From the NCBI GenBank assembly GCA_965205845.1, contig CBDBIG010000003.1, positions 20,453-84,452 of the forward strand: a stretch of DNA of 64,000 nt. Reading direction: 5' to 3'. This stretch comes from a bacterium. GTDB taxonomy: Bacteria > SAR324 > JACQKK01. The position numbers and the translations under genes were made by a program. Shown here in pieces: positions 10,788 through 62,420 of this stretch (its first letter is position 1; every line of letters starts with the position of its first letter). The notes under the pieces are model-generated. The model did no database searches. It had not been told where the DNA came from and saw only the letters and a list, made by a program, of their open reading frames with translations.

Positions 10788-11238
10788 AACTTTGCAGTCT
10801 TTTTTCAAAATCCATCAGACTTGTTTGAAGGTGGGGCTTTGTGCCGCGTTGGTTTTGCTAGGTGCGTGTACAGGGCGCGACTTTGCGCGGGTAACCCCAC
10901 CACTCGATCTGTATTCAGGCCAAGTGGCTGATTTGGGCCGCAAGGAGTGGCAGCAAGTGATTGTCACAAGCTGCCGTGCGGGCAGTAATGCAAGCAAGCG
11001 CCACGATTGTGAAGAAGAAGGAAAGGTACTTTTGCAGGCGGATAGTGCGCCTGCAAAGATTATTTCCACCATGTGTAACGAGTTTTCTACCACGCAAGGC
11101 ATGGCTGCGTGCTATTCCCAGGCCATTCAAATGGCCAATCACGATGCGCTTCGCCGCTTTCGTAACAGTTGTTCAGACGTACACCCAAAACCTAAGGCGT
11201 TTGTTACCTGCCTGCGCAAAGGCTTTCAGGCCTTTTAG
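10777..11238 (+). CDS. hypothetical lipoprotein (lipobox LLGAC); overlaps the thiolase stop by 11 nt
   Basis: Signal peptide plus lipobox. The 3' end including the stop is tandemly duplicated downstream. Confidence 0.4.
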   Translation: MLPETLQSFFKIHQTCLKVGLCAALVLLGACTGRDFARVTPPLDLYSGQVADLGRKEWQQVIVTSCRAGSNASKRHDCEEEGKVLLQADSAPAKIISTMCNEFSTTQGMAACYSQAIQMANHDALRRFRNSCSDVHPKPKAFVTCLRKGFQAF

Positions 11239-11344
11239 TGTTTTTAAAAATGCCCGTTGTTCGGACGTACACCCAAAACCTAAGGCATTGTTACCTGCCT
11301 GCGCAAAGGCTTTCAGGGCCTTTTAGTGTTTTTAAAAAATGCCC
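11168..11344. repeat. 88-bp x2 tandem duplication covering the stop codon of the lipoprotein gene
   Basis: 11168-11255 and 11256-11344 are ~95% identical. Confidence 0.9.
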
Positions 11345-11564
11345 GTCGTGTTGCTGCTCTAACACGCCAAGTAGCGTCACCGTCTGCCAATGCCGAGGGG
11401 TATTTATTTTGAAGCGTTTGGCGCATGGCTCTCCAAAGGCCGCCTGCCCGCATTTTAAAAAAATCACCCATGGCGCATCGAAGCTTTAAAAAATGGTTTT
11501 TTTAAGATTGGGGCTCAAAGGAAAACTCCGATGGGAACCATCTTTTAAAAAAGGGTTCGTGGTT

Positions 11565-13154
11565 TTACAAACGGGTGAGGATGTTCCCGGGGGTTTGACC
11601 CGTCATTTCGCCATTTTGGGCGACCACCACACCGTTTACCAAAACGCGTTGAATGCCACTTGGGTATTGATGCGGCGCTTTGTAAGTGGCGTTATCAAGA
11701 ATGTTGTCGGGCTCGAACACCACAATATCCGCAGCCATTTGTGGGGCTAGGCAACCTCTGTCTGTGATGCCAAAAGCCTTTGCTGGCTGCGAACTCATGC
11801 GTTGCACGGCCTGTTGGGGTGTAAGAAGTTTTTTGTCGCGTGCGTAACGCCCAATCACCCGCGGGAACGAGCCGTAATAGCGTGGGTGCGGTTGGCTTTT
11901 GTGCTCTTCCCCTTGGCGAGTGGTTAAAATGCCATCGGAGCCAATGGTGGTCCCTGGATGGGCCAGAATACACTCCATGTCTTCAACACCAATTAAAAAG
12001 AAAATAGCCAGGGTTTTGGTGTAATCTGCCAGTAGCAAATCAAGGGCTGCATCCACGGGAAGTTTCCCTTGGGCATCGCCTAATTCTTGCAGGTTTTTGC
12101 CGTTAAACTTGGCATTACTCGGCGATGCCGACACCATCACCTCTGTCCATTCGCTAATAGGCGATACCCCACTGCGATTGATGCCTTCCAGTATTTCGGC
12201 CCTAATTTGATCGCGGGTGCTGGGGTTTTGTAAGCGTTCGATCATCTTTTGGATGCCGCCTTCATGCGCCCACTGGGGAAGAATGGTTTTTAACCCCGTA
12301 CTGGTGGCAGGGTAGGGATATTGATCCCAATTGAGCTTGATGCCTTGGCTGCGCCAGTTTTCCAAGTGCTCTAGTACGGCTTGTGCTTGGCCCCAAAAGG
12401 CCTTACCGCTTATTTTGAGGTGTGAGATATGTACCGCCGCTCCCGAACGCTTCCCCACCTCCGCTGCTTCATCAATCGATTCAAAAATTTTCCCGCTCTC
12501 ATTGCGCATGTGGGTGTGATAGCCGCCCCCGTATTTGGCGGCAACCTTTGCCAATTCAGCGATTTCATCCACGTTTCCAAAAGACGAAGGTGGGTAGACC
12601 AGGCCCGTTGAAAAACCAAACGCACCACCCTTTAGGGATTCTTCCATCAAGGCTTTCATCCGCTCCATTTCAGACGGGGTCGGGGGGCGGTTTTCCATAC
12701 CCATCACCGCACAGCGCAGAGCCACATGCCCCACCAATTGAGCGATATTTTGTGCACACGGGGGCATTTTCTCTAAAAACTCCCCCATACTCTCCCAGTC
12801 ATAACGTAATCCACTGTCTAAGATTGCAGCATTTTCGCGGAGCAATTGTTTATGGGCAGGCAATATGGGTGCGGGAGACCAACCACACTGCCCTGTGATT
12901 TGGGTGGTAACCCCTTGCAACACCTTACCAGGTGCAAGGGGATTCACGGGCAGGTTAAACTCATCATGGGAATGGGAATCAATGAACCCAGGAGCGACGG
13001 CCAAGCCGCCTGAATCAATGATATGATCTGCTTTTTGATGGGCAAGGTCTCCTATTTCAACAATTTTACCCCCCGCAATGCTGATATCGGCTACATAGGG
13101 TTCGCCCCCCAAACCGTCCATTATCATGCCACCTCTAATCAATACTTCAACCAT
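11565..13154 (-). CDS. N-acyl-D-amino-acid deacylase (D-aminoacylase), amidohydrolase superfamily
   Basis: GFIDSHSHDE metal-binding motif. Length 529 aa. Overall D-aminoacylase-like. Confidence 0.7.
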   Translation of the reverse strand: MVEVLIRGGMIMDGLGGEPYVADISIAGGKIVEIGDLAHQKADHIIDSGGLAVAPGFIDSHSHDEFNLPVNPLAPGKVLQGVTTQITGQCGWSPAPILPAHKQLLRENAAILDSGLRYDWESMGEFLEKMPPCAQNIAQLVGHVALRCAVMGMENRPPTPSEMERMKALMEESLKGGAFGFSTGLVYPPSSFGNVDEIAELAKVAAKYGGGYHTHMRNESGKIFESIDEAAEVGKRSGAAVHISHLKISGKAFWGQAQAVLEHLENWRSQGIKLNWDQYPYPATSTGLKTILPQWAHEGGIQKMIERLQNPSTRDQIRAEILEGINRSGVSPISEWTEVMVSASPSNAKFNGKNLQELGDAQGKLPVDAALDLLLADYTKTLAIFFLIGVEDMECILAHPGTTIGSDGILTTRQGEEHKSQPHPRYYGSFPRVIGRYARDKKLLTPQQAVQRMSSQPAKAFGITDRGCLAPQMAADIVVFEPDNILDNATYKAPHQYPSGIQRVLVNGVVVAQNGEMTGQTPGNILTRL

Positions 13155-13747
13155 ATTCCTGTCCGTTCACGCGTTACCTTGTTTCAATGAAACCAAAATT
13201 GCAGCCAACGCAGCGAAGGGGCTGGCTACCAAAAACAGCCCCACCATAGAACTTTTAATCCTTATGTGCAAATCGGCCATCTCTTTTGTCGCCTGTGTTT
13301 CATCGTGAGACCTCAGCATAAGTTCTATATTCCAGTCTGAGCATATTTGATTATGCGGTGGTTGCTGGCAAAACCATATCGTTGCGATTTTGAGGGCGGA
13401 TTGTGATAAACTCGAGGGGCGTTTCAAAGGGAATTGCTTTACACAAATCTTGCACCTGAAACCAGGCAAACCCTAAAGGTAGCCTAGGACATCCTGACAA
13501 TATCGTTAAGGATGAGGAAAAACAAAATTACAAGCCAGAATATATTAGGCCAAAAACCCTTGCTTTTTAAAACCACCTTAAGTTCAGCCATGGGAAACCT
13601 TGTCCCTTTTGGCGCGTTGCAATGGGCATAGAGCAGTTGCAAATTATCATCGCTATCCGCTTCACCTTTTGCAAGGGACACAACGTGATCTTTGGTGAAA
13701 TTTTGATATAGGAAGGGTCGAGCCTTGCCGCCCCTCCCCCCAGCTTT

Positions 13748-15116: not shown

Positions 15117-15857
15117 CTACTGTAGTATCGATAAAAAATGGGTTTCTGTGCTGCGAAACACGTTCAGGTCGACGGGCGTTTGAATACCCTTCACGTTTCC
15201 ACGATCAGAAAATTGCCAAAACAGCCAGTTTTTTGGGCGAAGGGGACGCTGCCAGCGGTTACGCATCCAAATACGGGGATGTTGTAAATCGGCAAGGGCG
15301 TAAGCTTGATAAAACTGCCGCGTAACATAGATAATCGGCTTTTGAGCGTAGGTACGCTCAATTTCTTGTATCAAAAAAAGGACCTCTCCTTGCAACACCT
15401 CAATGCCAGGGCGCTTGCTGCAATTGCCTCCAAACTCCAAATCAATCGCGGGCGGCAGCGTGCCTTCTTCGGGTGGGGCCACGGCCAGCAGGTTTTTAAA
15501 TTGGTCGACAGCGGGGCGGCAGAGGGTAAAAAAATGGTAGGCACCGCGCACCAACCCCGCATCTTGGGCACCTTTCCAGTTTTCTACAAAGCGCGGATCA
15601 CGAAAATCACCCCCTTCGGTGGCTTTAATAAACACGAAGCGAAATTCGTCCGCGTCAATTTTTGTCCAGTCAATACGCCCTTGGTGATGGGAGACGTCCA
15701 GCCCCCAAAGATCAAATTCTCTGCGGGTGGGGTGGTTTAAACGTAACCAGTCTTGCTGATAGGCAGTATATAAGCCCAGCAATGCGCTGCCCAAAAGGAG
15801 GGTGATCCCCAAAAGCAAGCACGTTTTTTGGCGAGACAAAACAGGCATAAAGCACAC
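15117..15857 (-). CDS. GH25 lysozyme (muramidase) with N-terminal signal anchor
   Basis: GLDVSHHQGRIDWTKI ... FVFIKATEGGDFRDPRF ... GAYHFF. Confidence 0.75.
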   Translation of the reverse strand: MCFMPVLSRQKTCLLLGITLLLGSALLGLYTAYQQDWLRLNHPTRREFDLWGLDVSHHQGRIDWTKIDADEFRFVFIKATEGGDFRDPRFVENWKGAQDAGLVRGAYHFFTLCRPAVDQFKNLLAVAPPEEGTLPPAIDLEFGGNCSKRPGIEVLQGEVLFLIQEIERTYAQKPIIYVTRQFYQAYALADLQHPRIWMRNRWQRPLRPKNWLFWQFSDRGNVKGIQTPVDLNVFRSTETHFLSILQ

Positions 15858-15886
15858 GTTTGTAAGATAAAAAAGAAGGGGCTATG

Positions 15887-16160
15887 AAGGCGTCGTTTTA
15901 CGGGCGTGGAACCACAGGCTTTATCCCGTGAACATGCTCAAAAATCTCACCGCCAACGTGGCCCCAAAGATGAAGGCGTCGTTTTACGGGCGTGGAACCA
16001 CAGGCTTTATCCCGTTAACATGCTCAAAAATCTCACCGCCAACGTGGCCCCAAAGATGAAGGCGTCGTTTTGCGGGCATGGAACCACAGGCTTTATCCCG
16101 TTAACATGCTCAAAAATCTCACCGCCAACGTGGCCCCAAAGATGAAGGCGTCGTTTTACA
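15887..16160. repeat. 86-bp tandem repeat, 3.3 copies
   Basis: Units 15887-15972, 15973-16058, 16059-16144, then a partial copy. Confidence 0.9.
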
Positions 16161-16361
16161 AGGCAACGCGACCTTGGCACGAAATCGGGCTACCAAGAGA
16201 TACCTTCGGTGTGGATCACGAGGCAGGGTATGTTTGCGCAACACGCTAAAAACTTGTCTAAAAGCGGATGGCACGCCATGCCTAAAAATATAGCATAAGA
16301 AAGTCTGCGCCTATTTTAACGGACAGCAAGCGACAACACCATTTTTGAGCGTGTCAGTAAG

Positions 16362-16772
16362 TGGAGGCGGCGGGAGTCGAACCCGCGTCCTAATGGTGGT
16401 GAACTAAACGTTACTACAGGCTTAGCGACGTTTTGCGTTTAACAATGAGGATGTTGAAGCCGTCGCGGTCTCACCTCATGCGAGTTTGCCCTAGGAATTC
16501 GCCCAAAACACCAGCAAACCACTGTGCATAGGCTAGCACCATAAATGACACGGAAAAAGCGCTTATCGTGCGTGGGCACCTCCGCGGTCCAGCCCCTAAA
16601 TTAATAGGGGTGTAAGCACTCTGCTAAACCGCAATTAAGCGGCGAGGGCTACTGGAGCGTAGTTGCTGTTATTGGCATCTACGTGTGTGAACGATTTTTT
16701 ACGTGGCCCTTCGCTCAACCACGGCCTGCTCGCCTAATATCTCCTTCCACAGTCGAATGCCATAACGCCCCC
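16362..16772 (-). ncRNA. ssrA: tmRNA (ssrA), standard one-piece; predicted tag peptide ANNSNYAPVALAA
   Basis: 5' GGGGGCG...GCATTCGAC and 3' GGACGCGGGTTCGACTCCCGCCGCCTCCA form a tRNA-Ala-like acceptor with G3:U70. The 3' domain aligns with E. coli ssrA. The resume frame is GCC AAT AAC AGC AAC TAC GCT CCA GTA GCC CTC GCC GCT TAA. Confidence 0.8.
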
Positions 16773-16856: not shown

Positions 16857-17963
16857 CTAAAGCAACTTGTCTAAAAGCGCAAGGACGTGCTTGGCAATGT
16901 GCTGGGCAGCATCGCCATAAAAAAGGGTATCGCAGCGCTTTTCCATGGTGGTAAGGCGTTTTGGGGCATCAAACAAGGCAACGATGGTTTTAGCCAATTG
17001 CTGGCCATTTAAGTTAGCTTGCTCAAGCAACACGGCTGCCCCTGCTTTGGCTAACCGCTGTGCGTTCTTGCGTTGATGATCCCCGCTTGATCGTGGAATG
17101 GGGGTTAGGATGGAAGCCCTTTTGGCACAGGTGAGTTCGTGAATGGTACTGGCGCCTGCACGGGCATACACCAAATGGGCTTTGGCATACATGGCTGGCA
17201 TGTCTTTAATAAAGGTTAAGGCCTCTGCTTGCAAGCTGGGGTATTTGGCTTGCTCTGCTTGCACCAAGGCCAAGTCAGCTGCCCCTGTTTGGTGAATAAT
17301 GCGCAGCGGCCTCCCCCATTCGGCCAAAAAAGGCAGGGCCGCAATAACCGCCTTGTTGAGCTGATGCGCCCCCTGACTTCCCCCAAAAATGAGCAAGCAA
17401 GCTGGCGTTTGTGCCCGTTTAGGGCTGTTGGCGTTGGGTTGGCGCAAGGCTAAAATGTCTTGGCGAACGGGGGAACCGGTAACCACGCCATGGCGAAAGT
17501 ACGAGGCCACGCCTTCCTCCTGGGGCAAAAAGGCCGCGTGGGCCCAGGGCCCTAACAGGCGGTTGGCCAGCCCTGGGTGTGCATTTTGTTCTTGTAATGC
17601 CACCTTGCACCTAAGCAGCAAGCCCAATGCCACAAAGGGTGCCGAGGCATACCCCCCCACGCCAATAATAAGGTGAGGGCGATAGCATACAAGGGCCCAA
17701 AGGCATTGCAACAGGGCCAAGGGAAGTAAACATAAGGTGGTTAAACGCCGCCTTAACCCCATGCCTGCCCAGCCGCGGATAGCTGCTAAGTGAATTTTAT
17801 AACCCAGCTGGGGTGCCAAACGGCGCTCGATGCCGTAGTACGCTCCACCAAAGCGCAGCTCGCACCCAGGGTTTTGTTTTTGAATGGCTTGGGCGATGGC
17901 CACCCCTGGAAAAAAATGTCCGCCAGTCCCCCCTCCAGCGATTAAAATGCGATACGCTCTCAT
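16857..17963 (-). CDS. murG: UDP-N-acetylglucosamine--N-acetylmuramyl-(pentapeptide) pyrophosphoryl-undecaprenol GlcNAc transferase
   Basis: N-terminal ILIAGGGTGGHFFPGVAIA. Confidence 0.8.
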   Translation of the reverse strand: MRAYRILIAGGGTGGHFFPGVAIAQAIQKQNPGCELRFGGAYYGIERRLAPQLGYKIHLAAIRGWAGMGLRRRLTTLCLLPLALLQCLWALVCYRPHLIIGVGGYASAPFVALGLLLRCKVALQEQNAHPGLANRLLGPWAHAAFLPQEEGVASYFRHGVVTGSPVRQDILALRQPNANSPKRAQTPACLLIFGGSQGAHQLNKAVIAALPFLAEWGRPLRIIHQTGAADLALVQAEQAKYPSLQAEALTFIKDMPAMYAKAHLVYARAGASTIHELTCAKRASILTPIPRSSGDHQRKNAQRLAKAGAAVLLEQANLNGQQLAKTIVALFDAPKRLTTMEKRCDTLFYGDAAQHIAKHVLALLDKLL

Positions 17964-17967
17964 AAGG

Positions 17968-21850: not shown

Positions 21851-21890
21851 CGTTGCAAAAAGTGCCGTGTAAAAATAATCCCCTTGTGCC

Positions 21891-22345
21891 CCCTAGCGCG
21901 GTGTTTGTTTGGGTTTGCTGCCAAATGCATTTAAATGGTTTTGTAAAAATTGCCCCACGCGGCGCCATTTGGGAGCGATTTTGGGCGTACGTTGCAGCGC
22001 ATTTAACGCCTGGTTTGCAACGGGCACATTACCCGCTTGCACCCTAGCGCGGTGTTTGTTTGGGTTTGCTGCCAAATGCATTTAAATGGTTTTGTAAAAA
22101 TTGCCCCGCGCGGCGCCATTTGGGAGCGATTTTGGGCGTACGTTGCAGCGCATTTAACGCCTGGTTTGCAACGGGCACATTACCCGCTTGCACCCTAGCG
22201 CGGTGTTTGTTTGGGTTTGCTGCCAAATGCATTTAAATGGTTTTGTAAAAATTGCCCCGCGCGGCGCCATTTGGGAGCGACTTTGGACGCACGTTGCAGC
22301 GCATTTAACGCCTGGTTTGCAACGGGCACATTGCCCGCTTGCACC
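21891..22345. repeat. 151-bp x3 tandem duplication of the 3' end of the TPR gene (ORF on minus strand)
   Basis: ORFs 21893-22081 and 22044-22232 encode identical 62-aa peptides equal to the C-terminus of 22195-23403. The unit contains the palindrome GCATTTAAATGC. Confidence 0.9.
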
Positions 22346-23403
22346 GCCAGTAAGGCTAAGGGCAGGTTGGCAAAGGGCCACTTTTGGGCATGATCTCGCA
22401 GCATTTCTTGGAGGTCGTTTATTCCACCGTACAAAGTTTCTAAACTGGGTGCTTGTTGCAGTACTTGCTCGTAGACACCAATGGCTTCTTCGTGCTTTTG
22501 TTGCGCAATCAAGACGAGCCCCAAATTAAGTTGTACGTACTGCAACTGCGGGTTTTGGACCAAGGCAGTGAGGCTATGTTTTTTTGCCTTGGAGTAGTCG
22601 CCTAACAGGTAGTACATCCAGCCGATGTTACCATGACCAACAGGGTCGGGCACCCGCTTCAAAGCCTGTTTGTAGGCGTGAATGGCCTTTTTAACCAGGG
22701 GAAGGTCGTAGGTGGCCAACCCGTCCAACTGCAAATTTTGGCTTGCACCGTAGTGCACATTGGCTAACGTCTGCCAAAGTTCTGCTTGTTGTAAAGGGTC
22801 GTTTACGGCATTTAAGCCTTGGGTCAACACCTGCACGGCCACGGCGTATTCCCCGTGTTGGCTTAGCCCAAACCCCGAAACCACATGGCGGTTCAAAGGT
22901 TGCAGTAAGGAAGAACGCGAACGTAGCCTCTTTAAAATAAGGTCCCGCCAGCGTTTTTCTAAGGCAAGGCCAGGAGGTGGCTGCGGCGTGTTTTTCTGGT
23001 TTCTACCCAATTGAAAACGACGCCACCATTCGCTTAAACTGGGAGCGTCGCCTGGGCGTTCTTGGGTTTGAGGGCGCCCTGTCTCCAAAAATTTCTGCCA
23101 CCAAGGGGCGTGGTTTCTGGCTAAAGCATTGGCCAGTGCTCTGCGCTCTTGCAAGGGGCGTGGAAACAGCCAATAAAGGGAAAGGTGCGCGACCAATACG
23201 ACAGCCACAAAGGTCAAGGCGGCTTTAAGCAACTCCTTTTTGGTGGGGGCGTGGTTTTTTTCCCGCCCAGGCAAACCCAGCCACAGACGCGTGGCGTGGC
23301 GCCACTGGTTTAAAGCGTCATCGTAGCGTTTGGCGGCAAAGTAAGCATTGCCCTGGTGGTAGGCTAGGCGCGCTTTTGTATGGGGTTGTGCTTTGTGTTG
23401 CAT
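22195..23403 (-). CDS. TPR-repeat protein with N-terminal membrane anchor
   Basis: TPR-like repeats (AYHQGNAYFAAKRYDDALNQW, WMYYLLGDYSKAKKH). Confidence 0.6.
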   Translation of the reverse strand: MQHKAQPHTKARLAYHQGNAYFAAKRYDDALNQWRHATRLWLGLPGREKNHAPTKKELLKAALTFVAVVLVAHLSLYWLFPRPLQERRALANALARNHAPWWQKFLETGRPQTQERPGDAPSLSEWWRRFQLGRNQKNTPQPPPGLALEKRWRDLILKRLRSRSSLLQPLNRHVVSGFGLSQHGEYAVAVQVLTQGLNAVNDPLQQAELWQTLANVHYGASQNLQLDGLATYDLPLVKKAIHAYKQALKRVPDPVGHGNIGWMYYLLGDYSKAKKHSLTALVQNPQLQYVQLNLGLVLIAQQKHEEAIGVYEQVLQQAPSLETLYGGINDLQEMLRDHAQKWPFANLPLALLAVQAGNVPVANQALNALQRASKVAPKWRRAGQFLQNHLNAFGSKPKQTPR

Positions 23404-23809
23404 GGGGGTTGGTGTATCTCAAAAAAACATTTCGCACGGATGTGCGTTGTTAAACAAAGGCGTATGTGCGCTCCGCTGCACAGTGCTGAGGTTTAAGATG
23501 GGATGGTGCCCATTGCAAAACCGCGCATCCATACCCTTTTTTCTGGGCACGGGCACTTATTTTTTTAGCACTTTAACCCATGGCTGCTATAATACCCACT
23601 TGAGCCTGCCTTTTGACAAAAAATTAAACGCGTCCATACCCCTGGGTTTATGGAAATGGGCGAACCCTTGCGCCGACCAAGATTGTGTTGGCGCACTTTT
23701 TGCCTTACTGCTTGCCATGGTAGCGTGCCTGTTTAAGGCATGACACATGACCCGTTTTTGGTTACTATTTGGTATATATCCACACGCCCTTGTGGAAAAA
23801 CAAGACTTC

Positions 23810-24406
23810 ATGGAAAATAACCCTACGAAAATGGCTATTCTCTCTCGTTACCCCGAAAGTCAGAAAAAAGATTACATCTTTGTACTTGCCCATGCTTTTA
23901 GCGAGTTTGAGGAAAGGCCAGCGGAAGAATGTGCGCTGTTTAACGATTGGGTATTAAATTTCAGGATTCCACAGGAATACCACAGCCAACTCAATCAAAT
24001 CATTGATGGCGATTGGTTGGATAAACAATACACAAAGCGCATTGAGCGCTTGGTGATGCACCGCTTGGCGGATCCCTTGTTGCTCGATTCAATGGCGTTG
24101 GCCATGTCCGATGGGGTGTTGATGGACGATGAAGTGGATGCCTTGCGCAACTTGGCAACAGCAATGAACGTGTCTTCGGTGCATTTTAACATTTATCTTG
24201 AGCTCATTCACTCCGCTTACCAGGCCGCCTACCTCGAAAACCCAGAACCTTTGTTTGAGCACAACATCGAGCAAGCCTTAAACTTGCTGTGTCAACGAAG
24301 GGTGGTTCTCTTTGAACACGCAAAACTTTGTACCTGCTCAAAAGACTACAATGGAAAAATTAAGCAGCACTGGCTACGAATGAGCCAGCACAAAAGGGCT
24401 CGCTAA
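23810..24406 (+). CDS. TerB-like domain protein
   Basis: MSDGVLMDDEVDALRNLATAMNVS is TerB-like. Start probably MENNPTK rather than the ORF start. Confidence 0.4.
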   Translation: MENNPTKMAILSRYPESQKKDYIFVLAHAFSEFEERPAEECALFNDWVLNFRIPQEYHSQLNQIIDGDWLDKQYTKRIERLVMHRLADPLLLDSMALAMSDGVLMDDEVDALRNLATAMNVSSVHFNIYLELIHSAYQAAYLENPEPLFEHNIEQALNLLCQRRVVLFEHAKLCTCSKDYNGKIKQHWLRMSQHKRAR

Positions 24407-24628
24407 GCAAGAAAGGCTAGGAAACCTTTTGCGCCCATTGCAAAACGAGGCTCATTGGAAAGTAAGCGTGGCTCTCTTTGAACACGCAAAACTTTGTACC
24501 TGCTCAAAAGACTACAATGGAAAAATTAAGCAGCACTGGCTACGAATGAGCCAGCACAAAAGGGCTCGCTAAGCAAGAAAGGCTAGGAAACCTTTTGCGC
24601 CCATTGCAAAACGAGGCTCATTGGAAGG
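24304..24628. repeat. ~160-bp x2 tandem duplication covering the stop codon of the TerB-like gene
   Basis: 24304-24462 and 24470-24628 are nearly identical. Confidence 0.9.
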
Positions 24629-24667
24629 TAATCAAAGCATGTCAGTCGGTTTTTTTGGGGTAGACCA

Positions 24668-46073: not shown

Positions 46074-46220
46074 TAACGCTTTGCCATGGTGGGTTTTGGG
46101 CGAGCCATGTGTTGGGCTTCCTTAACGCTTTGCCATGGGGGGTTTTGGGCGAGCCATGTGTTGGGCTTCCTTAACGCTTTGCCATGGGGGGTTTTGGGCG
46201 AGCCATGCCTGGGCTTCCTT
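46074..46220. repeat. ~49-bp x3 tandem repeat covering the 3' end and stop codon of the cca gene
   Basis: Units 46074-46122, 46123-46171, 46172-46220. Confidence 0.9.
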
Positions 46221-47642
46221 AACTGTCGAAAAACAACCTTCTATTTGTGCATTAAGCGCGTGGCGCACGCAATCTCCCATCTTGGGGCCGGGGGACATGC
46301 CTAGTGCCAAAAAATGCCGCCCAAGCAGCAGGGGCTGTAAGGGTTTTTGCCACACACCCAATTGTTTGGCCAAGGTCTCAAGGCGCAATGCCCCGACAGC
46401 AGGGGTATTAGGGTACTTGCTTTGGTGAATGGCCGCGGATAAAAAAGCCAAATGCTGGCAGCCACGCACCTGGGCCAACTGGCGCACACAGGCAGCAGCT
46501 GCGGCCTCATCTAACTGCTCAAACCCCTGTATGCTCTGCCATTGGGCCAAAAGTTCAAGTATCCATTGCTTGATGTTCACCTGATGGGTCACCCGATTGA
46601 GTAAGGATTCAACATGCACCAATGGTGTTGGCTTTGCCTTTGGAGTGTTGGGGTGGTTGGCTAACATGGGTTCTAGCAGTGCGCTTAAACATAGGGTCAC
46701 CCACGTATCTTCATCGAGCAAGGCAGGGCTGGTGGAGGCAGGGGTTTGGCTAGTTTCACCCTTTTCAAGTCCGCCTTTGCGCAAAATGGCGCACATGGCA
46801 TCGACCGCCTTCAAGGCCTGCCGCCATGCGGGGCATGGTGCCTGCTGGACATACTTTGCGGGGGTGCGAAAGGCTGGTATGCAGGTGGCATGGTTGGTCT
46901 TCGTCGTGTTGGTTTGCAAGCTCCTGCCGGAATACAGTGCTTGAAGTTCAGGAAGGTAGGGCAATACGCCCGCAGTGTGCATGTAGCGCAAGCCTTGAGA
47001 GGGCTGGGGAGATCGCAAAAACAGTTTGCGTATTTCCTCCCAAATACGCTCGCGAGGCAGTTCGCTCAAATCTTGCTGGCGACACATGGCAAGGGTGTTG
47101 GGATCGATTTTGAAATGAAAGCGCCCTGCAAACTGCAGACCCCTTAGTACCCGCAAAGGATCCTCGGAAAATGCGGGACCAACGTGTCGCAACACGCGTC
47201 TGGTTAAGTGTTTTTGTCCCTGGTGAGGGTCAAGCAACGCGCCCTCTAAAAATGCGTAGCCTATGGCATTTATGGTGAAATCCCTGCGTGAAGCCGCGGT
47301 GAAAAAATCCATGTCTGGGTCGCAATCTATCCAAAAGCCCTTGTGTCCCTTGCCCATGTTGCGTTCTTTACGCGGAACGCTAAAGTCGTATTCGTGATGG
47401 TTGCCCATGAACTTAAGCACCCCAAAGCTGCGCCCCACGCTATGCACTCGCCCAAAGGGGGTTAGAGTGTGTTTGAGCGTTTGCAAAGAAAGGTTAAAAA
47501 CCTCCACATCCCAATCTTTATCGACCCTCATGCCCAGCAGTTGATTGCGCACGCTGCCGCCCACCAACACGGGGTTCCCCCCCGCTTGGGCAATGGCCTG
47601 GCCAATTGTCATCAATTCCTTGGGTACGTGCAACTTAGGCAT
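46122..47642 (-). CDS. cca: tRNA nucleotidyltransferase (CCA-adding) / poly(A) polymerase family
   Basis: GGSVRNQLLG...D.D nucleotidyltransferase head. Confidence 0.65.
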   Translation of the reverse strand: MPKLHVPKELMTIGQAIAQAGGNPVLVGGSVRNQLLGMRVDKDWDVEVFNLSLQTLKHTLTPFGRVHSVGRSFGVLKFMGNHHEYDFSVPRKERNMGKGHKGFWIDCDPDMDFFTAASRRDFTINAIGYAFLEGALLDPHQGQKHLTRRVLRHVGPAFSEDPLRVLRGLQFAGRFHFKIDPNTLAMCRQQDLSELPRERIWEEIRKLFLRSPQPSQGLRYMHTAGVLPYLPELQALYSGRSLQTNTTKTNHATCIPAFRTPAKYVQQAPCPAWRQALKAVDAMCAILRKGGLEKGETSQTPASTSPALLDEDTWVTLCLSALLEPMLANHPNTPKAKPTPLVHVESLLNRVTHQVNIKQWILELLAQWQSIQGFEQLDEAAAAACVRQLAQVRGCQHLAFLSAAIHQSKYPNTPAVGALRLETLAKQLGVWQKPLQPLLLGRHFLALGMSPGPKMGDCVRHALNAQIEGCFSTVKEAQAWLAQNPPWQSVKEAQHMARPKPPMAKR

Positions 47643-52230: not shown

Positions 52231-53718
52231 TTGAACTCAAAATTTTTAAGCGCGAGGTTTACACTCAATTTGGAATTCACGAATACCTTGTATTATGGGG
52301 ATAATTTAGGCGTTTTAAAAAACCTCTCTAAAAGAGACCCGTTCATCGACCTGATTTACAGCGATCCACCTTTTAACTCAAAGAAGAACTACAATATACT
52401 ATACAAAGACCTCATCACCTCAAAAGAAAACGGCGAAAAAGCCACAGCACTCAAAGAGGCCTTTAAAGATACCTGGAGCAATGTTGAAATCGGAAATGAA
52501 CTCGAAGAATTAAAAAGGCTGGATAACCTCAAGATCTTTCAATTTCTCCACAACAACAGAGGCGTTTTTGGGGATGATCAAATGATCTATCTCACCATGA
52601 TGGCCATTCGCGTGTACTACATGAAAAAAGTGTTGAAGGAGACGGGAAGTTTTTACCTGCATTGCGATCCAACCATGAGCCACTACCTTAAGGTGTTGCT
52701 TGATATTATCTTTGGCAAAAACCATTTTAGGAACGAGATTGTGTGGCATTACAGACGATGGACTGCTGCCTCACAACACTTTCAAAAGATGCATGACATC
52801 ATTTTTCGCTACACAAAGTCTGAGACCTTTTGCTTTAACCTTCAGTATGAACCCTACGGTGACTGGATTAAAAAAGATTACGGCTATCTTGATGAAAAAT
52901 CAGGGAAACGCTGGCGTTGGCATACCGTAAAAGGAAAACGCTACAAAGTGTTTTTGGAGGATGAAGACCAGGGCGTAAAACTTAACGATGTTTGGCAAAT
53001 TCCCCCAATAGGATCCACAGCAAAAGAACGGTTGGGCTACCCCACCCAAAAGCCCGTGGCATTGTTAAGGCGGGTTATCGAAGCAAGTAGTAACAAAGGT
53101 GATGTGGTCGCGGATTTTTTTTGCGGCTGTGGGACCACCATTGCCGCAGCCCAAGAATTGGAGCGGAAATGGCTTGGGGTCGACATTAGCCATTTGGCTG
53201 TTGGCCTGATTGAAGACAAGAGGCTAAAAAATCTGAAACCCATTCCAAGTTATGGGGTCAAAGGATTTCCGAGCGACGTGGCAGAAGCAGAAAAGCTGGC
53301 AACAGAGAAGCCGTTTGAATTTGAAAACTGGATTGTTGAATACAAGCTTCACGGGCATGGCACCCAAAAAACGGGCGATGGAGGATTTGATGGGCATCTT
53401 GCGCTCGACTTTGTGGGCAAAAGGATCTCTTGCATCATCGAGGCAAAAGGCGGAAAGTGTGGCATAAAAAATATCAGGGAGTTTCATGCTGTCATGGCAA
53501 AGCAAGGGGTCGATGTGGGGCTGTTTGTGTGTTTTGAAAAGCAAGTTAGCGATGGGATGCGAAAATACTGTGATGCGGAGGGCTTGATTGACATAGGCGG
53601 TGGAAGCACCCTCAACATGTTTCAAATTCAAAAAATAGGCATTCTCACGGTGGAATCCTTGCTGGCCAATCAATACCCCCACTGGTTAAACACGTTTATT
53701 GCCAACCAAACCTACTAA
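52231..53718 (+). CDS. beta-class amino-DNA methyltransferase (N4C/N6A) fused to a C-terminal Mrr_cat-type PD-(D/E)xK nuclease domain
   Basis: SDPPF (motif IV) precedes DFFCGCGTT (motif I). The C-terminus has TGDGGFDGH...IIEAKG. Local GC is visibly lower than the flanks. Confidence 0.65.
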   Translation: MNSKFLSARFTLNLEFTNTLYYGDNLGVLKNLSKRDPFIDLIYSDPPFNSKKNYNILYKDLITSKENGEKATALKEAFKDTWSNVEIGNELEELKRLDNLKIFQFLHNNRGVFGDDQMIYLTMMAIRVYYMKKVLKETGSFYLHCDPTMSHYLKVLLDIIFGKNHFRNEIVWHYRRWTAASQHFQKMHDIIFRYTKSETFCFNLQYEPYGDWIKKDYGYLDEKSGKRWRWHTVKGKRYKVFLEDEDQGVKLNDVWQIPPIGSTAKERLGYPTQKPVALLRRVIEASSNKGDVVADFFCGCGTTIAAAQELERKWLGVDISHLAVGLIEDKRLKNLKPIPSYGVKGFPSDVAEAEKLATEKPFEFENWIVEYKLHGHGTQKTGDGGFDGHLALDFVGKRISCIIEAKGGKCGIKNIREFHAVMAKQGVDVGLFVCFEKQVSDGMRKYCDAEGLIDIGGGSTLNMFQIQKIGILTVESLLANQYPHWLNTFIANQTY

Positions 53719-56512: not shown

Positions 56513-57986
56513 GCGGAGCAATTTTTTCGAACTTGCATCCTATTGAAGGGGGCGTACTCAAAGCAGATGAAATGGGTATTTGGAATCGTGGCCGTGATGC
56601 TCATTACGCATCTCATTTTTAAGCGTGCAGGGCGCAAGTAACCTCCTTTGTTTGTGCGTGAACACTCGCGGATTTGGACGCGCTTTACGCCGCCGCTGCG
56701 GCCCATGGTTTTGCAATGGTTTTGCAAGAGACCCACAACACACTAAAACGCTTTGGGATCCGCGGAGCAGGTGCAACCCAAGGGCTAGCGCAACAAACCG
56801 CTCTCGGATGAAGATAGGCACCGCAACGATAAAATCGCGCGCATTCGTGCTGGAGGTGAACGCCCCTTTGCCACCTACAAAAACCGCTACGCTCTCGCCC
56901 AAACATGATTTATGGAATGGGCTAAAAACATAACTGCCCCCGGCATCGCTGCGAATAGCCTACAACATACGCGAAAGGGGCCAGATTCCTGACGCTCTAT
57001 GGTCTGTCAGACCTCAGATTATGCTGCATCGATGTGTCCGATAGTCCCGCAATCGCCTTGAAACCGCCCATCGAATTCACCACAATCCGCCCTCAAAATC
57101 GCAAGTAACTGCAAACCAGTTATCCCACAAGGGTCATCTCCAAGCCCTACTAAGGTGAGTATTGCGAAAATGTTACGATTAAGAAAGCTTAAGCGAGTAA
57201 ACACAATGCGCTGCCATCGAAATCGTGTAGACAAAATACCCTTAAACTTAACGCACAACCATGCGCAGCAAAGCCAGAACATCCCACACAAGCACCACGG
57301 CTGCCATCAGCCAAAGACACCTCAGCATCCACGTGCCAAGCTGTGGCCATTGGCGTCTTATCCACTTGCGAAAAGCGAAGGTTAACAGCAAGAGCAACAG
57401 TGCCGCTTCCCATAAGCCCAATCCAAACATGGTTAGCGTTTTGCCTAGAAGGAATAGGAGGAATTTGTGGTGGTCATTGCAGAAGGGATTTGGTAACGCT
57501 TGAGCGAATCAGCAGCCCTCTTTGCACAGATTGCATGCCAAGAGGCTCGAGAACTCGTTGCACCCCGTTTTTTTGCGCTTGGTGCACCATACATAGCACG
57601 AGGCAGGCCTTTTTGTCATGGAGGCGAATGGCTATGTGGCACCCATGCTACCAAAGCCCAGCTTAGGCGATTGCGGGTAAAAAGCGCAAGCGTTGGCGTC
57701 CAATTGAGGTGGCCAAGTGGTGGTTCCTTCCTTTTTCCAAACGGGCTTCCCGTAAAGGCCCTGCTCGATACGCATTTTTTCAAAAGGCAAATGGGCGTTG
57801 TTAGAAGTTCCATCCGTTTTCCATAACCCAAGGGAACAAAGCCATGAGGGTTTGCAAGGTTCGTTTTGTTGTCATGCTTACAACTTCCACGAAGCGTCCA
57901 TGGGGTAACCTGTGCTAGCATGTGGGGGGCGGAGGTTTATAGGTGGTGGGTGAGATCAATTTTTTAGTTTTTTCTTAGCATAAAAG

Positions 57987-59738
57987 GTGTATTCGGTTGC
58001 CATGATGAATGGATGGATGGTTCAAAACCCCCTGGGCATAAAACCCATGGTTTGGTTATTGGTGTTGGGCATTGCTTGCATTGGCGGGGAAACACTCGGG
58101 CTGGCACAAGACACGGGTGCCCCTCCCCAAAGGGAGGTAGGGGAGGATAAAACCGATGCACATGGCAGTGCAAAAGCCAAAAAAGGCGGGGCGATGCGCT
58201 TGCGCCTTCCTGTTTCCCCCCCCTTGTTGCACCCCTTAAATGCCACGGATGCCTACGGTAACCGCGTGCTCGATAGCATTTATGAGTCCTTGGCAGATAC
58301 CGATGTGGATACCTTACGCTTTATTCCATTGTTGGCCTCACGTTGGAAAAAATCCCCCGATAGCCTGACGTATACCTTTTATTTAAACCCCAAAGCACGT
58401 TGGCACGATGGCAAGCCCGTCACCGCTGGCGATGTGGCCTTTAGCTTTGACGTACTCTTTGATTCCAATTTAAAGACCCGTGCCAAGTGGCAGTCGTATT
58501 ACAGCAATATCGCCTCGGTAAGGGTTATTGATACCTATACGGTCCGTTTTAGGGTGAAAAGGGATCATTTTCGAAATTTTATCAACCTTGCCACCTTGCG
58601 TATTGTGCCCAAACACTACTTTAAGCCAAACGAGCCCAACCAAACCGTTTTGGCCAAAAAGCCCGTGGGCAGTGGGCCCTACCGCTTTGTGTCCTGGAAA
58701 AAGGGGAGCCGGATTACCCTCAAACGCCATGCCGAGTATTGGGGCAAAAACCTCCCCCAAAACCGAGGGCGCTATAACCTGCGCCTGCTGCTTTACAAGG
58801 TGGTAACCAATAACAAGGTGGCCTTGCAATCGCTGCAAAAAGGCGAACTGGATCTGCTGGGCTTAACCCCCGAACAATGGAAAAAAGAAACCAAGAACCC
58901 AAAAATCTACGGCCAAGGTCCCATTACCAGTGCCCCCGTGGTCAAATTGAACGTGCAAAACCTCTCGCCACGGAGTTACAGCTACGTGGGTTGGAATCTT
59001 GCCTCCCCGTTGTTTAACGACCGCCGCGTACGCTTGGCTTTAAGCCATTTGTTCGATCGCAAAACCTTTATACAAAAGCTGTTTCATGGCTTGCGCGAGG
59101 AGGCAGTGGGCCCTTTTGCGTCCAATTCGCGCTATCGCTCGCCCAAAATTAAACCCATTCCGTTCTCGATTGCCGAGGCAGGGAGATTGTTTAAAGAGGC
59201 TGGTTGGACGGATAGCGATCAAGATGGTGTGCTTGATAAGAAGGGCCAAGCGATGCGCTTTACCGTGCTTACAGCCGACCCCGAAACAGGGGTAAAAATG
59301 CTAACCCTTGCCAAGCAGTCGATGCAAAAAGCGGGGGTCGATTTGCGCATTAAGGTGGTGGATTGGGCTGCTTTGCTAAAACTGATTGATGACCTCCGCT
59401 TTGATGCCGTGATGCTGGGTTGGTCCCGCAGTGCCTGGCCTGATCCCACCGCGTTATGGCACTCCAAAAGTGCGGTGGCGGGGGGGCTCAACTTGGTGCG
59501 TTACAAAAACCCCGAGGTCGATAATCTGATTGCAAAGGGGGTCAAATCGATACCCGACAAGCAACGGGTGGTGCTTTTTAGGCGGATACACGAGATCCTT
59601 TTTCGTGATCAACCCTATACTTTTTTGCTCGAAAGTGGGCATCAACTCACTGCCTATCGCAACCGTTACCATCAGGTCAAGCCTTGGTTTCACTACAGCC
59701 TTGGGAGCGATTATTGGTGGGAAAAATCCGTTAAATGA
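57987..59738 (+). CDS. ABC transporter substrate-binding protein, family 5 (OppA/DppA-like)
   Basis: Signal peptide; SBP_bac_5-like. Confidence 0.7.
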   Translation: MYSVAMMNGWMVQNPLGIKPMVWLLVLGIACIGGETLGLAQDTGAPPQREVGEDKTDAHGSAKAKKGGAMRLRLPVSPPLLHPLNATDAYGNRVLDSIYESLADTDVDTLRFIPLLASRWKKSPDSLTYTFYLNPKARWHDGKPVTAGDVAFSFDVLFDSNLKTRAKWQSYYSNIASVRVIDTYTVRFRVKRDHFRNFINLATLRIVPKHYFKPNEPNQTVLAKKPVGSGPYRFVSWKKGSRITLKRHAEYWGKNLPQNRGRYNLRLLLYKVVTNNKVALQSLQKGELDLLGLTPEQWKKETKNPKIYGQGPITSAPVVKLNVQNLSPRSYSYVGWNLASPLFNDRRVRLALSHLFDRKTFIQKLFHGLREEAVGPFASNSRYRSPKIKPIPFSIAEAGRLFKEAGWTDSDQDGVLDKKGQAMRFTVLTADPETGVKMLTLAKQSMQKAGVDLRIKVVDWAALLKLIDDLRFDAVMLGWSRSAWPDPTALWHSKSAVAGGLNLVRYKNPEVDNLIAKGVKSIPDKQRVVLFRRIHEILFRDQPYTFLLESGHQLTAYRNRYHQVKPWFHYSLGSDYWWEKSVK

Positions 59739-60812
59739 TAACGCCAGCCACACAGCCTTGGGAGCGATTATTGGTGGGGAAAAGGTGTTAAATAATAACG
59801 CCAGCCCACAGCCTTGGGAGGGTTTGTTGGCGGGAAAAGGCGTTAAATGATAACGCCAGCCACACAGCCTTGGGAGCGATTATTGGTGGGGAAAAGGCGT
59901 TAAATGATAACGCCAGCCTAACAGCCTTGGGAGCGATTGTTGGCGGGAAAAGGCGTTAAATGATAACGCCAGCCACACAGCCTTGGGAGCGATTATTGGT
60001 GGGAAAAATCCGTTAAATGATAACGCCAGCCACACAGCCTTGGGAGCGATTATTGGTGGGAAAAATCCGTTAAATGATAACGCCAGCCACACAGCCTTGG
60101 GAGGGATTGTTGGCGGGAAAAAGGTGTTAAATGATAACGCCAGCCCACAGCCTTGGGAGGGTTTGTTGGCGGGAAAAAGGCGTTAAATGATAACGCCAGC
60201 CCACAGCCTTGGGAGGGATTGTTGGCGGGAAAAAGCCGTCAAATGATAACGCCAGCCACACAGCCTTGGGAGGGATTGTTGGCGGGAAAAAGGCGTTAAA
60301 TGATAACGCCAGCCCACAGCCTTGGGAGGGATTGTTGGCGGGAAAAAGCCGTCAAATGATAACGCCAGCCACACAGCCTTGGGAGGGATTGTTGGCGGGA
60401 AAAAGCCGTCAAATGATAACGCCAGCCACACAGCCTTGGGAGGGATTGTTGGTGGGGAAAAGGCGTTAAATGATAACGCCAGCCTAACAGCCTTGGGAGG
60501 GATTGTTGGTGGGAAAAATCCGTTAAATGATAACGCCAGCCACACAGCCTTGGGAGGGATTGTTGGCGGGAAAAAGGTGTTAAATGATAACGCCAGCCCA
60601 CAGCCTTGGGAGGGTTTGTTGGCGGGGAAAAGGCGTTAAATGATAACGCCAGCCCACAGCCTTGGGAGGGATTGTTGGCGGGAAAAAGCCGTCAAATGAT
60701 AACGCCAGCCACACAGCCTTGGGAGGGATTGTTGGCGGGGAAAAGGCGTTAAATGATAACGCCAGCCACACAGCCTTGGGAGGGATTGTTGGCGGGGAAA
60801 AGGCGTTAAATA
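59695..60812. repeat. ~19 tandem copies of a 57-61-bp unit derived from the last codons, stop and downstream hairpin of the SBP gene
   Basis: Each unit carries GGCGTTA-aatga-TAACGCC (7-bp stem) and the TGA of the gene end. Confidence 0.9.
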
Positions 60813-60891
60813 ATGAGGTCACTCAAGCGGACGGCAAAAAGGCATTGAACTCCTTTTTCAATTTGCGCAAAAATAAGGGCCTTGCCTTTGT

Positions 60892-61923
60892 ATGTTCTCT
60901 TACATTGTAAAGCGTATTATGGCGATGGTGCCAACCTTTGTAGGCATTACGCTGATGACGTTTTTGGTGATTAACCTGGCGCCCGGGGGGCCTGTTGAGC
61001 AATTTTTGCGCGAGGTGCGCTTTGGGCAGGTACAAACGGGCAGTACAACGGGCTCCGGAAGCGGCATCGAAAATGCGGGGGTTACGGGGGACACCTTGCG
61101 CGAGCTCAAAGCCCAGTTTGGCTACGACAAACCTGTGCTAGAGCGCTACTTTATTTGGCTGGGTAATTTGCTGCGCCTCGACTTTGGGCGCTCTTTTGTG
61201 CACGATGTGCCTGCCATTGAGGTAATTGCCAGCAAATTTCCCGTGTCGCTCCAGTTTGGGATTACCTCTTTTTTACTAACCTACCTGGTGTGTATTCCCT
61301 TGGGTGTGTGGAAGGCCGTGCACGATGGGCAATGGGAGGATACGAGCACCTCGGCCCTTGTGTTTACAGGCTATGCGGTCTCGCCTTTAATGCTGGGCAT
61401 TGTGCTGATTGTGGTGTTTGGGGGTGGCGTGTTCGACTGGTTTCCCATTTCGGGCAGTGTATCTGACCTCCACGATGAACTAGGCTTTTTCGCACGCATT
61501 CAAGATCGCATTCACCATGCTATTTTGCCTTTAGGCTGCTATTTGGCGGGTAACTTCGCGGCGCTCACCTTGCTGATGAAAAATGCCTTTTTAGAAGAGA
61601 TGAACAAACCTTATGCCATTACAGCCATTGCCAAAGGCCTGCCCATGCGCACCGTGCGCTATTCCCATGTACTACGCAATGCCATGATCCCCATTGCCAC
61701 GGGGTTGGGGAGTTTTTTGGGGATTTTTTTTGCGGGGAATTTGTTTATCGAACAAATTTTTTCCCTCGATGGCATGGGGCTGCTGTTTTATCAAGCCTTG
61801 CTGGCCCGAGACTATCCCATTTTGCTGGGATCATTGAGCCTCATCAGCATGATACTGATGCTAGGGAACCTGATCTCCGACATGCTCTATGTGATCCTCG
61901 ATCCACGGATCGACTTTGATTAA
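60892..61923 (+). CDS. ABC transporter permease (OppB/DppB/YejB-like)
   Basis: N-terminal MFSYIVKRI...PGGPVEQF. 6-TM BPD permease. Confidence 0.75.
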   Translation: MFSYIVKRIMAMVPTFVGITLMTFLVINLAPGGPVEQFLREVRFGQVQTGSTTGSGSGIENAGVTGDTLRELKAQFGYDKPVLERYFIWLGNLLRLDFGRSFVHDVPAIEVIASKFPVSLQFGITSFLLTYLVCIPLGVWKAVHDGQWEDTSTSALVFTGYAVSPLMLGIVLIVVFGGGVFDWFPISGSVSDLHDELGFFARIQDRIHHAILPLGCYLAGNFAALTLLMKNAFLEEMNKPYAITAIAKGLPMRTVRYSHVLRNAMIPIATGLGSFLGIFFAGNLFIEQIFSLDGMGLLFYQALLARDYPILLGSLSLISMILMLGNLISDMLYVILDPRIDFD

Positions 61924-61976
61924 AGGGGTTGACCCAGATAACCCCCTAAAAAACACTTAATCCATTGTTTTGGCTG

Positions 61977-62420
61977 CGGTAATTGGACCGCAGGGGGTGC
62001 TAGATTGTTCAAACGCCTCCCGCACTCCCTTCAAAAGGTGCCAGAAGAATCGCGGAGGCCCTTGCGCTTTAGCGCCACACACATCGGCGGCGACTTTTGC
62101 CGTCTTTTGCCGTCTATCCTCGCAAATAAAATGCGCAATTCAAACGCCCTTGTTTGTATTGAACTTAAAAGGTGCCCCTTTTCCCACATACCGACTTGGG
62201 CGGTAATTGGACCGCAGGGGGTGCTAGATTGTTCAAACGCCTCCCGCACTCCCTTCAAAAGGTGCCAGAAGAATCGCGGAGGCCCTTGCGCTTTAGCGCC
62301 ACACACATCGGCGGCGACTTTTGCCGTCTTTTGCCGTCTATCCTCGCAAATAAAATGCGCAATTCAAACGCCCTTGTTTGTATTGAACTTAAAAGGTGCC
62401 CCTTTTCCCACATACCAACC
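61977..62420. repeat. 222-bp x2 tandem repeat in the convergent intergenic region between the permease and prfB
   Basis: 61977-62198 and 62199-62420. Confidence 0.9.

Follow-up and report, generated by a model that had tools for sequence, protein, structure and literature searches.

Tandem repeats that run across the end of a gene are known from Yersinia pestis, where variable-number tandem repeats (VNTRs) overlapping a stop codon have been described as a tolerated class, with 10 such repeats in 4.65 Mb against 5-6 that overlap a start, and with units mostly of 7-21 bp (PMC3689786). Throughout the prokaryotes, tandem repeats concentrate behind stop codons and ahead of start codons (PMC12418385). 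Here we analyse a 64-kb stretch of DNA (contig CBDBIG010000003.1 of assembly GCA_965205845.1, positions 20,453 to 84,452; hereafter the window) from an uncultured bacterium of the SAR324 lineage, which carries nine long-period tandem arrays, six of them at the 3' ends of genes. Like the Y. pestis VNTRs, these are locus-specific, head-to-tail repeats that can hold a stop inside the repeat, so that copy number leaves the protein unchanged; they are depleted inside open reading frames (ORFs) unless in frame, and those that overlap stops outnumber those that overlap starts. Unlike the Y. pestis repeats, the window's units measure 40-371 bp, their copies are often old and diverged, and the stop-spanning class is about 40-fold denser (six in 64 kb against 10 in 4.65 Mb). 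Stop-overlapping VNTRs being already documented, what is unusual here is the scale: the length of the units, the density, a divergence of 2-13% between copies, and the occurrence of all this in a novel lineage and its phages. A literature search found no description of such a genome or phenomenon in any lineage.

Two further classes of repeat occupy comparable positions. The mycobacterial interspersed repetitive units (MIRUs), reportedly described by Supply et al. in 1997, are likewise 40-100-bp tandem units in operon spacers, and a 57-bp array behind a solute-binding protein (SBP) gene of the window recalls them further in its mini-ORFs with TAAATGA junctions. MIRUs, however, are one dispersed family, whereas each window unit derives from a local gene end, and the 57-bp mini-ORF chain is broken by 1-nt indels and not maintained. 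REP/BIME palindromic elements lie 3' of SBP genes (malE-malF, hisJ-hisQ), and the same 57-bp array puts hairpin-bearing repeats between a periplasmic binding-protein gene and a permease gene. REPs belong to one family, dispersed over the genome and strongly palindromic; each 57-bp unit, by contrast, is copied locally from the 3' end of its own gene, has a weak 7-bp hairpin and gains no folding stability over shuffled sequence.

Regarding mechanism, E. coli offers RecA-independent slipped misalignment, tandem duplication of the microhomology or non-homologous end-joining (NHEJ) type, and template switching at quasipalindromes. The window's arrays resemble the products of these processes in the short microhomology at their borders, in the few filler nucleotides that some junctions contain and in having later grown through unequal exchange, and the short inverted and direct repeats within the phage modules described below look homogenised. 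Compared with model bacteria, however, both the frequency and the persistence of duplications appear far higher here.

Inventory, placement and junctions of the arrays

Arrays were called with Tandem Repeats Finder (TRF) at units of at least 40 bp, using the same settings for the window and for all comparison loci, and genes were mapped from Pfam and NCBIfam profile matches. The nine TRF arrays (units 40-371 bp, 2-20 copies, 87-100% identity) make up 8.2% of the window, and BLAST of the window against itself revealed two older duplications beyond these, at 3709-3862 (period 90) and 36526-36844 (period ~163). All eight arrays named in the first-pass annotation were recovered by TRF at essentially the same positions; its list lacked the two self-BLAST repeats and a small array at 30242-30319 (40 bp x 2). 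Each array consists of head-to-tail copies of one unit at one locus, as in a locus-specific tandem duplication or VNTR-type array. An in-frame gene stop lies inside six of them, and in all six the gene's own 3' end is the first copy, which extends to every gene-associated array a property first claimed only for the repressor gene c and the SBP gene. Comparing units with one another and with the window by blastn gave nothing significant outside each unit's own array. Because the units are unrelated between loci, they reflect independent local duplications; a dispersed repeat family of the MIRU or REP type is thereby ruled out, as is a mobile element (the first-pass annotation had likewise discounted a known one). 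No transposase or integrase gene of the insertion sequence, miniature inverted-repeat transposable element or integron type stands beside the host arrays, whose borders show only 2-6 nt of microhomology or filler. The arrays differ in age, with copy identity spanning 87% to 100%.

We compared the placement of the arrays with a null model in which arrays were collapsed to single copies and segments of the observed unit lengths were placed at every position. Among the nine TRF arrays, six span a stop only, where 0.57 would be expected unconditionally (P=3e-6) and 2.0 when segments inside genes are set aside (P=0.005); the ratio of stop-spanning to start-spanning arrays is 6:0 (P=0.015). Including the two self-BLAST repeats brings the total to 11 arrays, of which none falls wholly within a gene against an expectation of 8.1 (P=3e-7). 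Among the tolerated classes, 3.8 would be expected to contain a start and none does (P=0.008), and six span a stop only against an expectation of 2.6 (P=0.023). Placement is not exclusively 3', since the repeat at 36526-36844 sits in a divergent (5'-5') spacer. The pattern is real, and is best described as avoidance of gene interiors and starts. The 3' bias needs no 3'-directed process: avoidance of interiors and starts describes the data equally well, as purifying selection would produce.

Five arrays have border microhomologies of 2-6 nt, namely 3 nt for the 88-bp unit, 6 nt for the 151-bp unit, 2 nt for the 166-bp unit, GTTA for the 49-bp unit and GTTTG for the 371-bp unit, while the 224-bp and 40-bp arrays are joined through non-templated fillers of 7 and 2 nt. 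These signatures point to break repair or template switching, and not to simple slippage alone. In the reconstructed alleles the gene-proximal copy always keeps the protein, and frameshifts and substitutions are found in the distal copies.

The first-pass annotation had offered slippage or template switching associated with terminator hairpins, or selection for 3' structures, as possible causes. The microhomologies and fillers fit the former process, but not its link to hairpins. Against shuffled sequences, single units fold no better than background (z between -2.2 and +1.5). Searched within 10 nt, the 27 junction positions have no stronger best hairpin than random positions do (P=0.66), nor do genes with an array show more structure at their stops than the remaining genes (P=0.26). 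Selection for structure fares no better, the untranslated parts of the SBP and TPR gene arrays giving z=-0.93 and +0.51 against shuffles. Palindromes, which had been noted in several units, do occur in the 371-bp tail and in the 88-bp and 57-bp units, although units and junctions as a whole do not rise above background structure.

The comparison set amounted to ~480 kb, comprising ~385 kb from 22 unrelated loci and ~97 kb of syntenic loci from the nearest relatives. These 22, out of 24 comparison loci, had no such array, and the syntenic loci held no gene-end or intergenic arrays, their sole exception being in-frame RCC1 protein repeats in one locus (L028). Array density is therefore 1.4 per 10 kb in the window against zero in 22 unrelated loci and zero non-coding arrays in the relatives, and the exceptions across the whole set are one unrelated metagenome-assembled genome (MAG) and in-frame protein repeats. 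Comparison with relatives had been proposed at the outset as a check, and by its outcome the density is specific to this genome, in agreement with the lineage specificity suggested then. The exceptional MAG locus (L001, OZ244188.1, a 33% GC entry labelled 'MAG: bacterium') is rich in arrays, with four in 21 kb (at 5198-8127 and 17761-17863), which are coding repeats or lie at a gene 5' end and which we judged unrelated to the window pattern. The same locus supplies the closest MurG among species-representative genomes, at 38% identity, and for FtsW the closest proteins in a set of ~15 billion sequences reach 46-49% identity and carry the labels SAR324, Lambdaproteobacteria or 'Deltaproteobacteria'; from these values the source lineage is deep and otherwise unsampled. 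Once the arrays are collapsed, 83% of the window is coding, a low share by bacterial standards and in keeping with weak pressure towards deletion.

Origin and persistence of the duplications

On balance we think it probable that the arrays record frequent and persistent tandem duplication by microhomology or end joining, filtered by selection, and not the work of a new mobile element or of a special 3'-end machine. From the junctions, densities and placement we infer a pathway, a raised rate and a cause of placement along the following lines. Independent, locus-specific duplications would arise through illegitimate recombination, by slipped misalignment, template switching or end joining at 2-6-nt microhomologies, sometimes with a few filler nucleotides added at the junction, and some arrays would later be expanded and shuffled by unequal recombination. 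Such events would arise or persist far more often in this genome and its related Mu-like phages than in other bacteria, the genome being tolerant of non-coding DNA. The apparent targeting of 3' ends would then be mainly survivorship. A duplication wholly inside a gene would disrupt it, and one including the start or promoter would yield a truncated expressed copy; a duplication from the gene interior across the stop would leave the gene intact and add only untranslated sequence downstream, which we propose as the reason for the protein-sparing placement of the stop-spanning units. Existing copies can be co-opted, as exemplified by a C-terminal extension of a cca-family protein, the hairpin-bearing repeats that fill a 1.1-kb spacer between the genes for SBP and permease, and a six-module array behind the phage repressor. 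Support for a role of relaxed selection comes from degenerate related phage contigs, where arrays are also found within genes (in frame), in a spacer between divergent genes and separating the two pieces of a disrupted transposase gene.

Several observations weigh against this explanation. The P-values above are optimistic, as they come from one 64-kb window that was picked for its odd look. In every one of the six stop-spanning arrays most of the founder unit is coding and the stop lies towards its distal end, with a mean fraction of 0.79 of the unit upstream of the stop (Kolmogorov-Smirnov P=0.026). This skew extends to the two genes whose neighbours are convergent and which thus have no start downstream in need of protection; it is not obviously predicted by a pure selection filter. 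Persistence of non-functional copies to a divergence of 2-13% is long given the normal deletion bias of bacteria. Finally, the co-varying motifs of the 371-bp units cannot come from neutral decay.

The distal skew of the stop is what a mutational process aimed at 3' ends would lead one to expect. In such a process, a replication fork or RNA polymerase would stall where translation and transcription end, with the breaks repaired by end joining or template switching, and one junction would be set just downstream of the stop, in the region of ribosome-free polymerase, R-loops and termination zones. Units do extend only 0-6 nt (151-bp unit), 0-4 nt (49-bp unit), 13 nt (57-bp unit), 17 nt (88-bp unit), 57 nt (166-bp unit) and 163 nt (371-bp unit) past the stop. 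Filler and microhomology junctions fit break repair, three of the five convergent intergenic regions carry or abut an array, and the transfer-messenger RNA (tmRNA) gene, whose transcription is presumably high, has an 86-bp array 200 nt beyond its 3' end. The 6:0 ratio of stops to starts would also follow, but selection against the duplication of starts and promoters explains it equally well, and the sample is six events. Moreover, junctions and affected stops show no excess of hairpins or terminators, the array at 36526-36844 occupies a divergent spacer, and the related phage contigs have arrays inside genes and at a gene start as well. We regard a 3'-aimed process as unlikely, and a slightly stronger doubt attaches to its fuller version, a lineage-specific process at the ends of translation and transcription (replisome against ribosome-free RNA polymerase or R-loops, with end-joining repair) that would operate genome-wide in the host and its Mu-like phages. 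If such a process were at work, the genome would constantly be furnished with raw sequence from which C-terminal extensions and new intercistronic spacers could form.

Another way to view the arrays is as elements kept because they are useful, whether as 3'-untranslated or intercistronic elements stabilising the upstream mRNA, insulating neighbours or adjusting operon stoichiometry, in the manner of REP/BIME elements between SBP and permease genes, or, in the prophage, as protein-binding modules. The largest host array (57 bp x 19.6, with a 7-bp hairpin in every unit) lies exactly between the genes for SBP and its permease, and through the 88-bp duplication a terminator-like hairpin with its T-run is present twice. 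The 371-bp tail hairpin keeps its pairing by compensation at 5 of 14 pairs within an architecture conserved in related phages, and copies have persisted to 2-13% divergence. The folding tests of untranslated arrays and of single units described above speak against usefulness as a general account, as do variant 57-bp units that break the hairpin without compensation, the lack of any motif common to the units, and relatives that function with zero-length spacers between the TPR and PrsW genes. Benefit would explain why some arrays are retained, but not how they originated or why they share a pattern, and as an explanation of the whole we find it improbable.

That the arrays are artefacts, spurious tandem expansions made during metagenome assembly, is very hard to credit. 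The 224-bp pair, being 100% identical, is what such an artefact might look like; even here, however, the copies are joined through a 7-nt filler and not perfectly head to tail. In eight of the nine arrays the copies have diverged (87-98% identity) and there are indels and higher-order structure, features that an assembler does not introduce, and the source contig measures 877,621 nt; the diverged copies and filler-bearing junctions independently argue against an artefact. The names of the related contigs follow what we take to be the metaMDBG style, suggesting HiFi assemblies. Least credible of all is copying of mRNA 3' ends by a reverse transcriptase, as in a retron or a diversity-generating retroelement (DGR): the variable repeat of a DGR does sit at the 3' end of a gene and has a further copy beyond it, but Pfam scans of ~50 window ORFs found no reverse transcriptase domain (and the window no unusual polymerase, the kind of enzyme suggested in the first-pass annotation), the differences between copies are not adenine-biased, the variable columns holding all base changes and indels, the copies are strictly head to tail with stops included, and the units extend variably past the stop and share no 3' boundary.

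The interpretation in the first-pass annotation is thus borne out in part. Lineage specificity, a non-mobile nature and a plausible part for slippage or template switching have support, which the tie to hairpins and the requirement for a process directed at 3' ends lack. Were the density of the window to hold genome-wide, about one gene in eight would have a tandemly duplicated 3' end and about 8% of the sequence would consist of long-period arrays, an extreme architecture for a bacterial genome and a natural experiment on how duplications originate, persist and are filtered. Three outcomes can be seen within the window: the C-terminal extension of the cca-family protein, the conversion of an overlapping, translationally coupled TPR-PrsW junction into a 344-nt spacer, and a 1.1-kb spacer in an ABC-transporter operon. 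On the practical side, such arrays break short-read assemblies and mislead gene callers, as pseudo-3' fragments can be called as ORFs.

The repressor array of a Mu-like prophage

Positions 1 to ~8900 of the window are one end of a Mu-like transposable prophage, with B, A and ner in minus and c in plus orientation. In this gene order, its MuA domains, the homology of the c N-terminal region and the multi-copy state of the repressor it is like Mu and the D3112/DMS3-like phages. The early region (661-4314; Pfam matches PF02914, PF09299, PF09039, PF02316 and PF13693) comprises a gene for a B-like AAA/HTH protein (661-1443, minus strand), transposase A as two overlapping minus-strand ORFs (2509-3534 and 1542-2699, with HTH_Tnp_Mu_1/2, DDE_2 and Mu-transpos_C domains) and a ner-like HTH_35 gene (3988-4314, minus strand). 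The split of transposase A could reflect a frameshift or a pseudogene. The diverged period-90 repeat found by self-BLAST (3709-3862) lies between the ner stop and the transposase A start. The repressor gene c (4467-5609, plus strand) encodes an HTH N-terminal region homologous to DMS3/D3112-type c repressors and a Peptidase_S24-like C-terminal region. It occurs at 99% identity on four large contigs of the assembly (877, 771, 707 and 540 kb), so the Mu-like element is multi-copy in the assembly, and one of these contigs has a heteroimmune repressor variant with a different HTH region.

The array at the end of c (5402-7643 or 7644, plus strand; 371 x 6.0, 87% identity by TRF) has units of 371-379 bp, the first of which contains the c stop (5607-5609). 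Each unit joins the last ~208 nt of c, including the stop, to a tail module of ~163 nt. Within this module an 11-12-nt motif appears once, then, after 92 nt, twice directly with a 12-nt period and once inverted, forming a 14-bp hairpin followed by TTTT. Five types of motif are found among the six tails (GAGTTTAAAGC, GAGTTACAAGC, GAGTTCAAAGC, AGTTCACAGTTC and GATTCGTAAA), the instances within a unit co-vary, and compensatory double changes occur at 5 of the 14 hairpin pairs among five sequences. A seventh module overlaps the 5' end of c (4413-4560), with the motif GTCCGAGTT at 4418, 4510 and 4522, inverted at 4540, and the same 92- and 12-nt spacings.

Two related phage contigs (L031 and L032) were found by protein search, whereas scans of viral contigs with c and MuA and of metagenome contigs with c returned no related phages. 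Each of the two has a single module after c (7712-7870 in L031, 1424-1625 in L032) with a motif of its own, GTTCCATGTT and TACCAGCG respectively. The window prophage differs from these in having six modules after c and one at its 5' side. Among the Mu-like phages described so far we know of none in which repressor 3' ends form a tandem array or a hypervariable four-site module follows c, a point at which the literature search was not aimed. The possibility that the modules are operators for c was considered and is disfavoured: the L032 repressor shares the recognition-helix region of the window c although its module motif differs, and the motif is absent from the ner-c spacer of L031 and L032. 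Because the motif does not follow the recognition-helix region of the repressor, the sites are probably not c operators. A packaging site or another specificity site is possible, and the hypervariable module may be regarded as a candidate specificity site, undescribed for transposable phages as far as we know.

Regarding its origin, the 371-bp array is a special case. Its initial event has the same type of signature, the GTTTG microhomology, as the host arrays; the variety of its modules needs recombination among prophage copies, or selection, in addition. Homology to the end region of L031 and L032 at 8742-8875 places the array inside the prophage, with one prophage end in the window. Between the array and this conserved end region lie 1.1 kb (7645-8741) that are absent from L031 and L032 and contain two ORFs without a family match, 7760-8143 and 8254-8628, the second of which begins with a 9-bp x6 repeat, GTTGCCCCA (8262-8315). 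A 10-bp x3.7 repeat, AAAACCACAT (8831-8867), has a counterpart in L032, the AAAACCCACA repeat at 4555-4592, and may provide a set of sites for transposase binding. L031 also has a 46-bp unit (CCGCCTCTTGTTTT..CCAAGGGTTTGTGG) in tandem at 1724-1822 and 4513-4657, one of these arrays lying between the halves of its transposase gene; unlike the window units, this one belongs to a dispersed family.

Host arrays and their neighbouring genes

The first host array (11168-11346, plus strand; 88 x 2.0, 94% identity by TRF) lies at the end of a putative lipoprotein gene (10705-11238, plus strand, stop 11236-11238), a label that rests on a plausible lipobox, LLGAC, in a protein with no family match. The unit comprises the last 71 nt of the gene with its stop and 17 nt downstream, and is the only one with a clear terminator-like hairpin and T-run at the stop; its distal copy has two indels.

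The 86-bp array (15884-16159, minus strand; 86 x 3.2, 97% identity) is non-coding. On one side of it, 26 nt away, is the 5' end of a GH25 lysozyme gene (15117-15857, minus strand), and on the other, after ~200 nt, the 3' end of the tmRNA gene ssrA (16359-16772, minus strand, tag ANNSNYAPVALAA). As array and both genes share the minus strand, an earlier description of this array as immediately 3' of convergent genes was wrong. An origin as a tmRNA-derived attachment-site duplication was rejected, the array having no similarity to ssrA.

In the 151-bp array (21887-22345, minus strand; 151 x 3.0, 98% identity), the proximal copy is the last 151 nt of a TPR gene (22195-23403, minus strand) and ends at its stop. 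The TPR C-terminus aligns with the end of its ortholog, and is thus an authentic gene end. The 344-nt spacer between the TPR and PrsW genes consists of two extra copies of the TPR 3' end, while in four related loci (L024, L025, L026 and L028) the two genes overlap or are at most 7 nt apart, from which it follows that the extra copies in the window are derived. The neighbouring array (24298-24631, plus strand; 166 x 2.0, 98% identity) duplicates the last 109 nt of a 219-aa gene (23747-24406, plus strand) with its stop, together with 57 nt downstream, and ends 37 nt upstream of ftsE (24668). The gene had been called TerB-like, for which there is a sub-threshold Pfam match (E=0.007, 17 bits against a cut-off of 24.4).

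Two further repeats are intergenic. The 40-bp array (30242-30319, plus strand; 40 x 2.0, 94% identity) is a 38-nt segment, a TT filler and the 38-nt segment again, in the spacer between co-directional ABC-3 permease and LolA-like genes. The older repeat found by self-BLAST at 36526-36844 (plus strand, 87% identity) lies between a DHHA1 gene (35471-36451, minus strand) and a large TPR gene (37068-40814, plus strand).

The 49-bp array (46074-46223, minus strand; 49 x 3.1, 96% identity) is at the 3' end of a nucleotidyltransferase gene (46122-47642, minus strand), which had been labelled cca and which does belong to the CCA-adding/PcnB family, although it falls below all equivalog cut-offs. A 1-nt deletion in the proximal copy skips the first stop, so that the protein reads into copy 2 and gains a C-terminal extension of 16 aa in which VKEAQ... 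is repeated.

The 57-bp array (59695-60811, plus strand; 57 x ~19.6-19.7, 92% identity) starts 44 nt before the stop (59736-59738) of an SBP_bac_5 gene (57987-59738, plus strand) and ends 81 nt upstream of the permease gene (60892). Its higher-order periods of 113 and 453 bp imply repeated unequal exchange. Each unit forms its 7-bp hairpin around TAAATGATAA, and units encode 18-aa mini-ORFs (MITPATQPWEGLLAGKRR) whose ATG abuts or overlaps the preceding stop (ATGA, TAA-ATG); the chain of mini-ORFs is partial, with 1-nt indels shifting the frame, and does not reach the permease start. Downstream, the 224-bp array (61976-62416, plus strand; 224 x 2.0) lies, as first annotated, beside convergent genes, a permease gene (stop 61923) and a release-factor gene (stop 62454). 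It consists of two copies of a 217-nt segment joined by the filler GACTTGG, and their complete identity marks it as the youngest event.

Some minor features of the host sequence may be added. GCCGTCT-like motifs raised the question of a Neisseriaceae origin, which was rejected when a scan for DNA uptake sequences (DUS/USS) gave no DUS dialect. The interval of ~1.4 kb between valS and the SBP gene (56513-57986) has no convincing gene. A 64-nt dispersed repeat, 92% identical between its two copies (30354-30416 and 57104-57166), occurs in the long spacers upstream of the LolA-like and SBP genes; an Rfam scan of the spacer holding the first copy (29957-30470) gave no match. A plus-strand gene at 52231-53718 encodes a 495-aa protein in which N6/N4 DNA methylase and Mrr-type restriction endonuclease domains are joined. 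The gene for a selenocysteine tRNA (27706-27804, minus strand) indicates that the organism uses selenocysteine.

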